5,284 nucleotides of DNA, from assembly GCF_036507355.1 (NCBI RefSeq), contig NZ_AP027882.1. One strand, written 5' to 3'. Position 1 is the stretch's first letter. Every line of letters begins with the position of its first letter. This DNA is from Escherichia coli. GTDB lineage: Bacteria; Pseudomonadota; Gammaproteobacteria; Enterobacterales; Enterobacteriaceae. Both the position numbers and the translations under genes were made by a program. A model generated the notes under the pieces. That model was given only the letters and a program-made list of their open reading frames with translations, was not told the origin of the DNA and searched no databases. Shown here piece by piece: positions 2,230 to 5,284 of this stretch.

Positions 2230-2373
2230 TTTAACGGCAGAAAAAACAAAGCCCCGGCAATCATGAGCTATCTTGGCGGATGAGCATGACTACCAGGGCC
2301 AGGTACAAAACCTTGAAAGGATATTAGCACATGAACTGTGCCAGACAACAGCCCGCCATAAGCGCAGGGCGCT

Positions 2374-3270
2374 TTGAGTAACGCCGCACTCGAACTATTC
2401 AACGAACGCTTGCCGCACAAGCCGTACTTTTCGGACGATTTGCACTTTGGTGTACGCATTGCCGGCAAGGAACGCGCCATTCTGGCGAAATACATCCAGT
2501 TCAATCAGCCTCATGCCATGTTCTGGCTGGGATTCGATGTTGATCGCGCCGGTGCCGCTATTGACTGGAGTGACCGCAATGCTCCCGCGCCCACACTGAC
2601 CATCACCAACCCCGAAAACGGACACGCGCATCTGCTGTACGCGCTAAAAACCTCGATACGCACAGCGCCGGACGGAAAAATGAAGCCGCTGCGCTACGCT
2701 GCCGCCGTGGAGAACGCGCTACGTAAAAAATTAGAGGCTGACGCGGGGTATTCAGGGTTAATCTGCAAAAATCCGAACCACAGGCACTGGAAAATTGCCG
2801 TGTGGCAGCCGGAACTCTACACACTGGACTGGCTGGCCGATTTCCTTGACCTGAACGCTGCGAACGATAAAGAAATCGTTGCCGACTACGGATTAGGCCG
2901 TAACTGCACCTTGTTCGACAAAACCCGAAAATGGGCTTATCGTGCTATTCGTCAGGGCTGGCCTGAGTATGGACAATGGATGCTAGCTTGTGTTGAAAGA
3001 GCTACAGCTTACAACATGCAGTTTTCAGCACCATTAGATGAAAAGGAGGTCATAAGTATAGCGAAGAGTATATCTAAATGGACATATTCTAAATTCACAC
3101 AGCAATCTTTCGATGAATATGTTAAGAAAACACACTCAGCTGAATGTCAGAGTATAAGAGGGCGCAAGAGCTCTGGCGGAGGGCGGCCAAAAATAAGATC
3201 TGAGGAGTGGGTCTCTCTAGGTATTAGTCGCGCTACGTGGTATAGGAAGCACTATAAAAATGAAAATTAA
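2374..3270 (+). CDS. rep: ColE2-type plasmid replication initiator (Rep, primase-like replicase with PriCT-like and C-terminal HTH regions)
   Basis: 298-aa ORF starting at TTG 2374, with an in-frame stop at 2359-2361 just upstream. Translation (..ERLPHKPYFSDD..FDVDRAGAAIDWSDRNAPAP..NGHAHLLYAL..YSGLICKNPNHRHW..GLGRNCTLFDKTRKWAYRAIRQGWP..) follows the conserved blocks of ColE2-family Rep as I recall them. C-terminus has a basic tract and an HTH-like WVSLGISRATWYRK. Base composition switches from GC-rich to AT-rich near 2950. Confidence 0.85.
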   Translation: MSNAALELFNERLPHKPYFSDDLHFGVRIAGKERAILAKYIQFNQPHAMFWLGFDVDRAGAAIDWSDRNAPAPTLTITNPENGHAHLLYALKTSIRTAPDGKMKPLRYAAAVENALRKKLEADAGYSGLICKNPNHRHWKIAVWQPELYTLDWLADFLDLNAANDKEIVADYGLGRNCTLFDKTRKWAYRAIRQGWPEYGQWMLACVERATAYNMQFSAPLDEKEVISIAKSISKWTYSKFTQQSFDEYVKKTHSAECQSIRGRKSSGGGRPKIRSEEWVSLGISRATWYRKHYKNEN

Positions 3271-3916
3271 GATGTATGTCTTGTCTTTGTTTTTTTTGTT
3301 TATACCAATAATTTTTTATTTTTCTGGTATTGATGATGTCTGGAACGTTTTTACCAAAGCTAATGGTTTTTGTGATGGCGTCAGTAATCGTATTGTCTGT
3401 ATAACAGGTAATATGGGCAACCAGCTATCTCTATCCGTGTCAAGGTTATGCGTTTGTATTTTTTTGGTCTTTTTGTGTGGCTATACTTACTGGTGGTATA
3501 AGAGACAGCTTTCATTTTTGGATAGGGGGATTACCTCTGCCGAAGTGGTTGTTGTTGGATGCGAAAAAGAGTCAACTGAGTATCTGTCATTTTTGTCAAC
3601 TTACATAATGCCCCTGGTTTTTACAGACTTAACAAAACCTTCAAATGTTTTCAATTTCATTTTTATTCTAGTTATTGTCGGATTTCTTCATATAAAAACA
3701 AGAAGGATTCATAGCAACCCAACGCTTTCATTGTTTGGTGTTTCTGCTTACAAAATTGACTATATAATCAGGGTTGATGGTCAGGATTCTGATATCACAA
3801 AAGGATTGATTGTCCTGTCGAAGGATGAGATATCTGTGAAAAGTGTAATTCGAATCATAAAAAAAGAAGACTACATTACATTCGCAAAATACATAAGGAA
3901 CGATTCAAATGGCTGA
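3260..3916 (+). CDS. Multi-pass inner-membrane protein, unknown function (about 4 predicted TM helices plus a roughly 70-aa soluble C-terminal domain)
   Basis: 218-aa AT-rich ORF. Hydrophobic segments at about aa 5-23, 57-80, 108-121 and 129-145, followed by a charged tail. ATG 3260 overlaps the rep stop (3268-3270); AGGAAG at 3244-3249. An alternative in-frame ATG is at 3272. Confidence 0.7.
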   Translation: MKIKMYVLSLFFLFIPIIFYFSGIDDVWNVFTKANGFCDGVSNRIVCITGNMGNQLSLSVSRLCVCIFLVFLCGYTYWWYKRQLSFLDRGITSAEVVVVGCEKESTEYLSFLSTYIMPLVFTDLTKPSNVFNFIFILVIVGFLHIKTRRIHSNPTLSLFGVSAYKIDYIIRVDGQDSDITKGLIVLSKDEISVKSVIRIIKKEDYITFAKYIRNDSNG

Positions 3917-5054
3917 AGAAAAACTGGATTTAAGCGAGCTCCATCATGACGCGCAGAAGGCCTCTGAGCTCTCATCCTATTACTCCCACTTCGATACAAA
4001 GGTAGAAGATTTTGACCTTCATGTATATTTTAACTTTAGGCATAAGATAAAGGGCGGTGATGGAAAGTACCGTTACGAATATCGGGTTGCAAAAATAGAT
4101 GATACTACTGTTCTGAAAGAATCAATCAAAGATAACGTGATAACAAAAACCCTTAATGATCTAAGTAGCGGTAGAGTTGCAGTATCTGATATAAAGCAGC
4201 TTAGTGATAGGGCTAGCACTATATCATTTTTAGAAGATGCAAAGTCATACAAAGATGAACAGATGTCTTTTTTGACAGGTATTATTTTTGATAAGGGATT
4301 TGGAGGTGATGGGGATATTCCTGTCGTCAATTTTGAGAAGTTTGATAAAATATCAAAGGTTGACTCAATTGTTTTTGTCTTAAGGAAAGGTGATAAATGT
4401 ATAACAATATACAAAAAACAGTATCCTATACAGAACCTGACCAAACAGAAAAATCATTACTTCTCATATAGCAAAGATACGTTATCAAAAATAGATGCTG
4501 ACATGATATCAATTGATGGAAAAGCCTCTATTGTTTTTGTTAAAGGTACTGCATATATCTATGATCAGGATGTTTTTGAGAAATTTTTCGGATACAAGAA
4601 GTGGATAAAAAAAGTTGCGGGCGAATTTGTTTCTGAAATGAAGCAAAAATTTTCATCGATAGTAGACTTTGGAAAAGTTACCGACAGGCTTGAAAAAGAA
4701 AGTGCTGATGCAGATGCCTTTTCAAGGAAACTGGCAAGAATATATAACAATAAAGATCTAAGAGCTTCCTTTAATACTGTTACACCAGAAAAAATCAGTG
4801 ATTTTTTAGTTGAAAATGAGTATTTCGCTAGATTGCTAAAGTACAAATCAGCGGAAGAACCTTTAGAAGTATCAACCCATGATCAGCAGGAAGCATTTAT
4901 ATTAATAGTTTCTGAGGGCGTTCTTCGCTCGCTTATTACTGGTTTTGATTATTTAAGCCCTGCCGCGAAAAGAAAAATTGCGACAGGCCAAACCGCGCAA
5001 AAACCTTCTTCTGTAGTAACTAGGATACCCTCCAGCGCATCTGACGCCGCCTAA
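3909..5054 (+). CDS. Hypothetical 381-aa soluble protein, unknown function; candidate effector or sensor partner of the upstream membrane protein
   Basis: Long AT-rich ORF with AAGGAA 8 nt upstream. ATG 3909 overlaps the upstream stop (3914-3916) in an ATGGCTGA junction. No Walker, HxH, nuclease or other motif recognisable by eye. Ends just upstream of a strong hairpin plus T-run. Confidence 0.8.
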   Translation: MAEEKLDLSELHHDAQKASELSSYYSHFDTKVEDFDLHVYFNFRHKIKGGDGKYRYEYRVAKIDDTTVLKESIKDNVITKTLNDLSSGRVAVSDIKQLSDRASTISFLEDAKSYKDEQMSFLTGIIFDKGFGGDGDIPVVNFEKFDKISKVDSIVFVLRKGDKCITIYKKQYPIQNLTKQKNHYFSYSKDTLSKIDADMISIDGKASIVFVKGTAYIYDQDVFEKFFGYKKWIKKVAGEFVSEMKQKFSSIVDFGKVTDRLEKESADADAFSRKLARIYNNKDLRASFNTVTPEKISDFLVENEYFARLLKYKSAEEPLEVSTHDQQEAFILIVSEGVLRSLITGFDYLSPAAKRKIATGQTAQKPSSVVTRIPSSASDAA

Positions 5055-5077
5055 CGAACGAGCTTGAGACAAAACAA

Positions 5078-5125
5078 CCTATATCAGATAACAGCCCTCT
5101 CTAAGAGAGGGCTGTTTTTTTTGCA
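5078..5125 (+). other. Candidate ColE2-type replication origin element
   Basis: TATCAGATAACAGC at about 5081-5094 matches the core of the ColE2 ori as I remember it (recall, not search), and is followed immediately by the hairpin and T-run. It lies about 1.8 kb downstream of rep, not directly after it. Confidence 0.4.
5091..5122 (+). terminator. Rho-independent terminator-like hairpin with T-run closing the rep-cargo operon
   Basis: Perfect inverted repeat ACAGCCCTCTC (5091-5101) / GAGAGGGCTGT (5105-5115) around a TAA loop, followed by eight T (5115-5122). Read directly from the sequence. Confidence 0.65.
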
Positions 5126-5139
5126 GCCAGCACAGAATC

Positions 5140-5245
5140 TGACATACTACACCATACCATAAGCCAGTACACACAGCGTCCCCTCTGCGAGGTGCCGTCT
5201 GTGACTGGTTCAGGGGGCTCGCCGCCCCCCGAAACCCCCGGCATC
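5140..5245 (-). other. ColE1 bom-like oriT with putative nic site (minus strand)
   Basis: Minus strand reads ..GAACCAGTCAC..(31 nt)..GTGTGTACTGGCTTATGGTATG.., resembling the pBR322/ColE1 bom region ..GACCCAGTCAC..GTGTATACTGGCTTAACTATG.. recalled from memory. Putative nic within CTGG/CTTA, between plus-strand 5163 and 5164. GC-rich inverted repeat GGGGGC / GCCCCC at 5213-5229 nearby. Confidence 0.5.
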
Positions 5246-5284
5246 CACTGCGAAAAATTCTCACGGTGGTGCGAATTTTTTCTT

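Follow-up and report, generated by a model that had tools for sequence, protein, structure and literature searches.

There is hardly any doubt that the open reading frame at 3260–3916 of the window (the whole stretch of DNA analysed, a complete 5,284-bp mobilizable ColE2-type plasmid) encodes KwaA, the membrane protein of the two-gene Kiwa anti-phage system, that its 381-aa neighbour is KwaB, and that the pair is carried as plasmid cargo. All coordinates given here refer to the plus strand of the window.

Identification of kwaA and kwaB

The kwaA coding sequence (3260–3916, 218 aa, ATG start) is delimited by the ORF call, by matches to curated models and by the RefSeq entry (kwaA, WP_024140105.1). 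KwaA matches the PADLOC model PDLC00211 with an E value of 1.9e-121, aligned over positions 1–215 of 215, and scores 173.9 bits against the NCBIfam equivalog NF041622, whose cut-off is 100. A sequence search of the PDB matches it to the solved KwaA 9mrg (E 1.8e-13), and proteins of this ORF in a public protein collection are assigned to PF28043, a family named KwaA. A Pfam-A profile search gave zero matches for KwaA, but the Pfam-A set used is without the newer PF28043, so this blank is not evidence against membership.

Because a word-indexed homologue search returned only 11 close relatives, an exhaustive search was used in its place, and it found 249 relatives when run against the representatives of 50%-identity clusters. 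The dN/dS of kwaA is 0.20 in comparison with an 88%-identical copy, and that of kwaB is 0.13, so that purifying selection acts on both genes. The number of relatives and the dN/dS of kwaA mark the ORF as a true gene and not a chance one.

The kwaB coding sequence (3909–5054, 381 aa, DUF4868) starts before kwaA ends, with 8 nt shared at the junction (ATGGCTGA), and is preceded by a Shine-Dalgarno-like AAGGAA 8 nt upstream of its ATG (3895–3900). KwaB matches PADLOC PDLC00226 end to end (E 1.2e-220), Pfam KwaB PF16162 (E 7.4e-17) and, in a PDB sequence search, 9mrx_K (E 1.3e-7). RefSeq labels it 'KwaB-like' because it scores 92 bits against the NCBIfam KwaB equivalog and does not reach the cut-off of 200. 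A DUF4868 kwaB gene directly behind a co-directional kwaA is the arrangement of a Kiwa operon.

The gene at 3260–3916 is already known, as RefSeq labels it 'anti-phage protein KwaA' with the identical start. A preliminary description had correctly observed the ORF, with its length and its ATG; that the two genes make up the known Kiwa defence system had escaped it. It had also named 3272 as a second start candidate. No start codon of the ORF precedes ATG 3260, which RefSeq also uses, and Lys2 aligns with a Lys kept in 86 of 102 homologues. The start at 3272 was rejected because this conserved Lys2 would be lost.

Topology, fold and conserved residues of KwaA

The proposal of about four TM helices agrees with both hydropathy and the model. 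On the Kyte-Doolittle (KD) scale, KwaA has strong hydrophobic segments at aa 6–24, 56–76 and 127–145 and a weak one at about aa 106–123. The AlphaFold2 model (pLDDT 87.5, pTM 0.79, built from 105 homologues) has four long helices (aa 2–21, 56–89, 107–120 and 127–146), one β-strand in the TM2–TM3 loop (94–103) and four C-terminal strands within 162–211. When the model was searched with Foldseek, the best match was 9mrx_A (E 7.3e-12, TM 0.72/0.79); the top seven matches were all KwaA chains, with E values from 7e-12 to 2e-7, and the next match had an E value of 0.35. The curated-model scores, the four TM helices, the ICL1 and C-terminal strands and the fold of solved KwaA all place the protein in the KwaA family.

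TM1 (aa 2–21, 3263–3322) is modeled as helices 2–9 and 11–21 and contains S9 and L13, which are almost invariant across the family. By analogy with the solved homologue, the N-terminus with K2 and K4 would be cytoplasmic. ECL1 (aa 22–55, 3323–3424; pLDDT 67–74), a periplasmic loop by the published topology (PMC11785009), is the most variable part of KwaA, yet each of the four distinct clade sequences compared has its Cys38 and Cys47; these sequences are those of the window, of plasmid pMUT2, of an island copy (L005) and of a Photobacterium chromosome (L008). TM2 (aa 56–80) runs on in the model as a helix into the cytoplasm to aa 89 (3425–3526), where the ICL1 strand follows (aa 94–103, 3539–3568), as in the published architecture of KwaA. 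TM3 (aa 107–120, 3578–3619) is weakly hydrophobic, with a KD value of about 0.9, and is one of the two best-conserved stretches, containing E107, F111, T114, Y115 and P118. TM4 (aa 127–146, 3638–3697) is followed by a nearly invariant N153-P154-x-L156, in which N153 and P154 are found in 104 of 105 sequences and L156 in 98.

The tail at aa 146–218 had been described as charged, and it contains 13 K/R and 9 D/E. Most of it forms a predicted cytoplasmic β domain (aa 154–211, 3719–3892; model strands 162–172, 180–187, 196–199 and 206–211), which is predicted to join the ICL1 strand in a cytoplasmic β-barrel. In solved KwaA, ICL1 and the C-terminus form a β-barrel that docks KwaB and makes the larger KwaA–KwaB interface (PMC11785009). 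The earlier suggestion that the soluble tail contacts the 381-aa partner is borne out in that homologue, and by analogy the β domain at 154–211 is probably the KwaB docking surface here.

Solved KwaA, with its TM1–4, assembles into a tetramer whose central pore is lined by TM3 and has been likened to an ion channel (PMC11785009). Of the idea that KwaA is a pore-forming component, this pore is the part that holds. The same pore could be read as that of a toxic pore-former, a holin-like abortive-infection effector or an addiction-module toxin regulated by the 381-aa protein, all the more as small plasmids often carry addiction modules and sister plasmids carry RelE/ParE pairs. However, tested Kiwa systems cut phage yield while most cells survive (PMC11785009), so that abortive infection is not their mode of action. 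Moreover, pMUT2 and its companion plasmid pMUT1 could be cured from E. coli Nissle 1917 with growth unaffected (PMC13226779), and KwaA matched no holin or toxin family; besides the KwaA models, it matched one marginal PADLOC candidate family and PHROGs families of unknown function. We consider a toxic role highly improbable, and the holin or toxin reading was rejected on these grounds in favour of KwaA as a Kiwa subunit.

The plasmid and its cargo slot

The same plasmid occurs over its whole length of 5,284 bp at 99.0–99.9% identity in Salmonella, E. coli and Dickeya (S. enterica CP082432 and NZ_CP071392; E. coli pLAO2, NZ_OP242216; Dickeya fangzhongdai pJS5, NZ_CP025004). These records have kwaA and a KwaB-like gene annotated, with equal kwaA coordinates, and differ from the window by a few point changes only, a single one being in kwaA in the comparison with pLAO2.

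pMUT2 (NZ_CP023342; WP_024199421 and WP_001704287) belongs to the same Kiwa clade. It is also a mobilizable plasmid of similar size, with a ColE2-type rep upstream of kwaA and the conserved element described below right after kwaB. Its proteins are 55.5% (KwaA), 51% (KwaB) and 79% (Rep) identical to those of the window. Its kwaA and kwaB are separated by a 2-nt gap, whereas they overlap by 8 nt in the window plasmid. At the place of its RelB/RelE pair, the window plasmid has a 78-aa ORF (1959–2195) of no known function, which matched nothing in PADLOC, NCBIfam or PHROGs.

kwaAB is low-GC cargo. The rep stop codon bounds it precisely on one side, and a conserved element with a terminator does so on the other. 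This 32-bp element (5066–5097) forms the right border of the slot; it is found 0–25 nt from the cargo stop in five plasmids with differing cargo and in two non-plasmid copies, and similar sequence is present in 460 plasmid records. From its position and conservation, we take it to be a putative ColE2-type origin. A literal sequence search of the literature for it returned nothing relevant. Four differing types of cargo occupy the slot, each overlapping the rep stop. In sister plasmid L003, the first cargo ORF had no matches in PADLOC, NCBIfam or PHROGs, and the sole match of the second was a PHROGs family of unknown function.

Junction of rep and kwaA

Directly upstream of kwaA lies rep (2374–3270; RefSeq 'replication initiation protein'), which encodes a ColE2-type primase-like replication initiator with the domains Replicase (PF03090, E 3.2e-45) and PriCT_1 (PF08708, E 1.7e-10). 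Two Rfam similarities in the rep leader are below threshold: PK-repBA at 35.8 bits against a GA of 45, and a CopA-like match of 28 bits on the opposite strand. The kwaA ATG (3260–3262) sits in the final rep codons, exactly as the preliminary description had it, and the rep stop TAA is at 3268–3270, giving an overlap of 11 nt (3260–3270, ATGAAAATTAA). The 11-nt overlap is identical in pMUT2 (ATGAAAATTAG), and in sister plasmid L015 a DUF262 cargo gene has an equivalent 11-nt overlap on the rep stop.

A Shine-Dalgarno-like AGGAAG lies 10 nt upstream of the kwaA ATG, within rep codons (3244–3249). Its AGGAA is kept in pMUT2, in three islands (L005–7) and in the Photobacterium chromosome, rep being decayed or absent in the islands and in Photobacterium. 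A sequence scan found no terminator between rep and kwaA. After kwaB, a strong intrinsic-terminator-like hairpin with a T-run (5090–5124; 12-bp stem, 7 GC pairs) putatively ends a rep-kwaA-kwaB unit.

A kwaA start inside the final rep codons would allow termination–reinitiation coupling. Because the overlap is kept in pMUT2 and unrelated sister-plasmid cargo also overlaps the rep stop, co-transcription of rep, kwaA and kwaB and translational coupling of kwaA to rep are plausible. The coupling proposed in the preliminary description stands to this extent, with the absence of an intervening terminator also on its side, but not as something that kwaA needs. Purifying selection also maintains chromosomal and island kwaAB, where rep has decayed or is missing, so that coupling to rep is not obligatory. 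RNA folding of the junction at four loci gave no structure beyond shuffled controls, which leaves structure-gated coupling unsupported.

Alternatively, kwaAB could be driven by its own promoter in the 3′ end of rep and by its own ribosome-binding site, the overlap being compact packing with no link to replication control. A weak σ70-like site, TTCACA-18-TATGTT (3094–3123, 9/12), is a candidate 137 nt upstream of the kwaA ATG. Island copies without functional rep read TTGACA-17-TATGTT at this site, the AGGAA persists where rep is gone, the kwaA start region is AU-rich and unstructured, and chromosomal kwaAB is selected without rep. However, the region contains 7 promoter-like sites where 8.6 were expected from shuffles, so there is no excess; in pMUT2 a site of at least 9/12 was not found at the corresponding position, yet the overlap is kept; and the islands that provide this evidence all belong to one lineage. 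In addition, four cargo types that overlap the rep stop look like systematic operon design. We regard the promoter in rep as possible rather than probable and co-transcription with rep as the probable arrangement.

Outside plasmids, islands with a rep pseudogene have kwaAB under purifying selection, and chromosomal or island copies of the Kiwa clade retain stretches derived from both rep and the origin-like element. In the Photobacterium chromosome, only 25 nt are shared upstream of the kwaA ATG, and they hold the last rep codons. Such remnants beside kwaAB document plasmid-to-chromosome capture.

A wider reading, which we put forward as doubtful, is that the interval from rep to the origin-like element is a dedicated cargo slot in which the first gene starts within rep, so that Kiwa or DUF262 cargo would be slaved to an antisense-controlled Rep, and that the clade is plasmid-born and was captured repeatedly. 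If so, defence output would track copy-number control and burst on plasmid entry before antisense RNA builds up, and chromosomes and satellite-like islands would have captured the Kiwa clade from plasmids along with rep and origin fragments.

Proposed function

KwaA is an inner-membrane protein with four TM helices and, by analogy with solved Kiwa, would have both termini in the cytoplasm and form tetramers. The β-barrel made of the TM2–TM3 loop and the C-terminal ~70 aa would dock KwaB dimers to give a membrane supercomplex. KwaA may sense membrane perturbation where phage attaches or ejects DNA, and KwaB (DUF4868) may bind the incoming DNA, by which phage replication and late transcription would be blocked without the cell being killed. 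The system would be anti-phage and also anti-conjugation. The plasmid's own Kiwa variant is presumably active, and we infer its oligomeric state and sensing mechanism by homology.

In E. coli Nissle cured of pMUT1 and pMUT2, T4 plaquing rises at least 1000-fold, with plaques at 1e5 dilution compared with at most 1e2 before (PMC13226779). This result is confounded, as pMUT1 and the RelBE pair of pMUT2 were lost at once.

It is also conceivable that Kiwa is selected on the plasmid mainly for shutting out rival plasmids, conjugative or mobilizable, rather than for phage defence. Four of five tested Kiwa operons lowered conjugation more than 2-fold (PMC11785009), and the carrier, itself mobilizable, competes for hosts. 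However, the reported anti-conjugation effect is small beside phage protection, chromosomes and islands also maintain the cassette, and the Nissle data point to a T4 phenotype. We consider plasmid exclusion as the main function unlikely and phage defence the preferred reading.

The finding as given matters little, since kwaA is already annotated in public copies of the plasmid and the structure and mechanism of the family were published in 2025; a modest added value lies in the context. A complete phage defence has spread across families on a 5.3-kb mobilizable plasmid that is near-identical in Salmonella, E. coli and the plant pathogen Dickeya, which is relevant to phage therapy and host-range prediction. 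The defence genes fill a precisely bounded slot from rep to the origin-like element, an arrangement common to unrelated sister-plasmid cargo.

Comparison with solved Kiwa

The solved E. coli KwaA (PDB 9mrg, 9mrr and 9mrx; Zhang, Todeschini et al. 2025, PMC11785009) and the KwaA of the window are only 24–26% identical. The window protein is longer (218 aa compared with 195), mostly in ECL1, which has the clade-specific Cys pair, and its TM1–ECL1 part was unaligned to solved KwaA in the sequence search. Likewise, KwaB has 381 aa compared with 315; it is extended at the N-terminus, and its tail is rich in Ser, Thr and Ala. Published interface residues of KwaA are mostly not kept: K75 corresponds to R89, but N77, Q79, D80 and H156 correspond to I91, S93, A94 and I170. 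Therefore, the KwaA–KwaB interface would need co-evolution. On the other hand, both proteins have four TM helices, an ICL1 strand and C-terminal strands assigned to a cytoplasmic β domain, and the motifs ExLxFLxTYIxP in TM3 and KT..NPTL after TM4, and the solved kwaA is likewise directly upstream of a DUF4868 KwaB gene.

Identification of a Kiwa pair

The 218-aa ORF occupies 3260-3916 on the + strand, as called from an ATG within the final codons of the replication initiator gene rep (2374-3270, TAA stop at 3268-3270). The preliminary description of the ORF and of its ATG inside the rep end was correct in every detail, with an 11-nt overlap found, ATGAAAATTAA. Position 3260 is the earliest start codon available to the ORF, and AGGAAG lies 10 nt 5′ of it. 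The alternative start, ATG 3272, was rejected, as it would lose Lys2, whose column is Lys in 86 of 102 homologues. N-termini of most homologues reach 2-13 residues beyond this start.

Kyte-Doolittle hydropathy gives three strong segments (aa 6-24, 56-76, and 127-145) and one weak segment (around aa 106-123). An AlphaFold2 model made with 105 of the 249 relatives, which were found among 50%-identity representatives by exhaustive search, has pLDDT of 87.5 and pTM of 0.79, with helices at aa 2-21, 56-89, 107-120, and 127-146 and strands at aa 94-103, 162-172, 180-187, 196-199, and 206-211. The expected four or so TM helices were thus borne out, as was a charged C-terminal domain, the last 73 residues containing 13 K/R and 9 D/E. 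The best-conserved family positions fall in the weakly hydrophobic TM3 (E107, F111, T114, Y115, and P118) and shortly after TM4 (K146, T147, N153, P154, L156, and G160).

The protein matches the PADLOC model PDLC00211 over 1-215 of 215 positions (E = 1.9e-121), 12 additional PADLOC KwaA models, and the NCBIfam equivalog NF041622 at 173.9 bits (curated cut-off, 100 bits). Its 381-aa neighbor, at 3909-5054 on the + strand with an 8-nt overlap, matches PADLOC KwaB PDLC00226 (E = 1.2e-220) and Pfam KwaB/DUF4868 PF16162 (E = 7.4e-17); with NCBIfam KwaB it scores 92 bits, under the cut-off of 200. Chains of the solved Kiwa were also matched by sequence (KwaA 9mrg, E = 1.8e-13; KwaB 9mrx, E = 1.3e-7). 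When the model was searched against PDB with Foldseek, all seven significant matches were KwaA cryo-EM chains, the top one being 9mrx_A (E = 7.3e-12, TM 0.72/0.79, 26% identity). Because KwaA chains alone were significant and the first match beyond them had E of 0.35, the fold is assigned to KwaA. Those non-significant matches (E = 0.35-0.4) were C-terminal OB-like domains of NfeD/YbbJ, membrane-anchored SPFH partner proteins, to which the C-terminal β domain (3719-3892) may bear a remote structural analogy.

The two proteins are therefore a Kiwa pair. The genes are already known and annotated, RefSeq labeling the first ‘kwaA, anti-phage protein KwaA’ (WP_024140105.1, same start) and the second ‘Kiwa anti-phage protein KwaB-like domain-containing protein’. 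This subtype is also catalogued already, because PADLOC holds a dedicated model pair for it. The earlier interpretation was partly right, but it had not recognized the known system that the KwaA and KwaB models reveal.

Plasmid backbone and cargo slot

The window is a complete circular plasmid of 5,284 bp, mobilizable, with replicon type Col(Ye4449) and MOBP. Copies 99.0-99.9% identical to it are known from Salmonella enterica, E. coli (pLAO2), and Dickeya fangzhongdai (pJS5). Because Enterobacteriaceae and Pectobacteriaceae (Dickeya) share it at ≥99% identity, recent spread between families is indicated. Sources of near-identical plasmids include turkey and a food additive (Salmonella), human stool (E. 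coli), and a pear pathogen (D. fangzhongdai).

Compared with a sister plasmid, the common backbone consists of the mob genes (1-1807), the rep leader with the bulk of rep (2238-3134), and 5070-5283, whereas 1808-2237 and 3135-5069 are variable. GC content is 33-37% in the cargo versus 55-62% in the mob part of the backbone. The low-GC region 1808-2237 contains a 78-aa ORF (1959-2195; RefSeq hypothetical WP_023135788.1) without a match in PADLOC, NCBIfam, or PHROGs. In its place upstream of rep, pMUT2 of E. coli Nissle 1917 has a RelB/RelE toxin-antitoxin pair; RelE/ParE-NadS genes are among those listed for several sister plasmids, irrespective of position.

Rep has Replicase and PriCT_1 domains. 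Its leader (2244-2363) has two sub-threshold Rfam matches, the PK-repBA pseudoknot of antisense-controlled leaders on the + strand (35.8 bits, E = 2.8e-5; GA 45) and a CopA-like antisense RNA on the − strand (28.2 bits, E = 0.056). Both agree with the description of ColE2 replicons (PMC5304414) and would fit a rep gene controlled by antisense RNA, like that of ColE2.

Judging from sister plasmids, the interval following rep looks like a general cargo slot. It holds a DUF262 protein gene in Klebsiella pneumoniae pWSD411_9 (L015, 23-1798), two small hypothetical ORFs in L003 (1600-2326), and a 166-aa ORF in L014 (1290-1790). Other matches also list genes for an AAA ATPase and a DEAD/DEAH helicase, irrespective of position. 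The DUF262 gene shares 11 nt with the end of rep, its ATG lying within the same K-N-E rep codons, and an 89-aa ORF and the 166-aa ORF overlap the rep stop by 4 and 1 nt. That unrelated cargo overlaps the rep stop too makes the overlap a property of the slot and speaks for an operon of rep and cargo.

The slot ends at a conserved 32-bp element, GAGACAAAACAACCTATATCAGATAACAGCCC (5066-5097), which comes 0-25 nt behind the cargo stop codon in every plasmid examined, and in chromosomal copies as well; in pMUT2 the kwaB stop codon forms part of it. It is a putative origin, which probably resembles the minimal origin of ColE2-P9. Sequences like it are present in 460 plasmid records, IncX1 conjugative plasmids included. 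After the element come a GC hairpin and a T-run in the window (5066-5124), L003 (2338-2400), L014 (1801-1874), and L015 (1801-1857), and likewise in non-plasmid copies, such as an island (L005, about 7810-7860) and a Photobacterium damselae chromosome (L008, 7781-7818).

Islands that also encode an integrase and a primase of the D5/Pox_D5 type (L005, 5460-7860; L006, 5351-7751; L007) contain, in order, about 535 nt of decayed rep, kwaAB, and the element. The P. damselae copies (L008-L011, 5976-7839) also have the element, and upstream DNA shared with pMUT2 is limited to 25 nt. These rep and element scars beside non-plasmid kwaAB indicate capture from ColE2-type plasmids.

Rep-kwaA junction

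The junction overlap is kept in pMUT2 (ATGAAAATTAG), although identity to the window is 55.5% for KwaA, 51% for KwaB, and 79% for Rep. A terminator-like site was looked for between rep and kwaA and none was found, and a strong one with a T-run lies 3′ of kwaB (5090-5116). Promoter-like sites were not commoner in the region than in shuffled sequence; within rep the best-scoring candidate is a weak TTCACA-18-TATGTT (3094-3123, score 9/12). Junction RNA folding showed no structure above shuffled controls (z-scores, −0.27 to +0.98).

Termination-reinitiation coupling from rep to kwaA is plausible, with chances about even. Coupling is not necessary, because kwaAB is kept without functional rep. The islands contain window 2725-5119 at 89.6% identity with frameshifts and stop codons in the rep part, and dN/dS is 0.20 for kwaA and 0.13 for kwaB; in P. 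damselae the pMUT2-shared DNA starts 25 nt upstream of the kwaA ATG, including only the last rep codons. In the islands, the promoter-like site 165 nt upstream of kwaA reads TTGACA-17-TATGTT, which hints, in this single lineage, at promoter improvement that may compensate for lost rep read-through. It seems rather unlikely that start codons embedded in rep link the expression of cargo, here a defense system, to the replication-control circuit of the plasmid.

Comparison with known Kiwa systems

Kiwa was identified on pMUT2 of Nissle (PMC13226779). When Nissle was cured of pMUT1 and pMUT2 alone, T4 formed plaques at 1e5 dilution versus ≤1e2 before, comparable to DH10B (PMC13226779). These data, indirect and confounded, are compatible with activity of a Kiwa of this clade when it is expressed in its native setting, linked to rep.

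In the solved Kiwa, KwaA is a tetramer whose central pore is lined by TM3, and one tetramer contacts four KwaB dimers, chiefly via its barrel, in a fence-like membrane supercomplex (PMC11785009). Defense needs both genes and the TM region, Kiwa foci appear at phage attachment sites, and KwaB, which is inhibited by Lambda Gam, binds DNA through DUF4868, phage replication and late transcription being blocked (PMC11785009). Because protected cells survive, Kiwa is not abortive infection (PMC11785009). We infer a similar tetramer, pore, KwaB docking, and defense mechanism for the window pair, with the conservation in TM3 and just after TM4 as support. The proposal that the soluble tail touches the 381-aa partner agrees with the solved complex. 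The pore-forming idea gains loose support from the central pore, but a toxic role is unsupported given cell survival.

On the other hand, window KwaA is only 24-26% identical to solved KwaA, and sequence search aligns aa 65-197 only. Its ECL1 is longer, is modeled with low confidence, and has a Cys38/Cys47 pair kept in each of the four distinct sequences that were compared from this clade. By alignment mapping, published contact residues are mostly not kept; K75 corresponds to R89, and N77, Q79, D80, and H156 to I91, S93, A94, and I170. Window KwaB, at 381 versus 315 aa, is about 65 aa longer, having an N-terminal extension (aa 1 to about 40) and a Ser/Thr/Ala-rich tail (355-381) that is probably disordered. 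The tail of pMUT2 KwaB has the same character.
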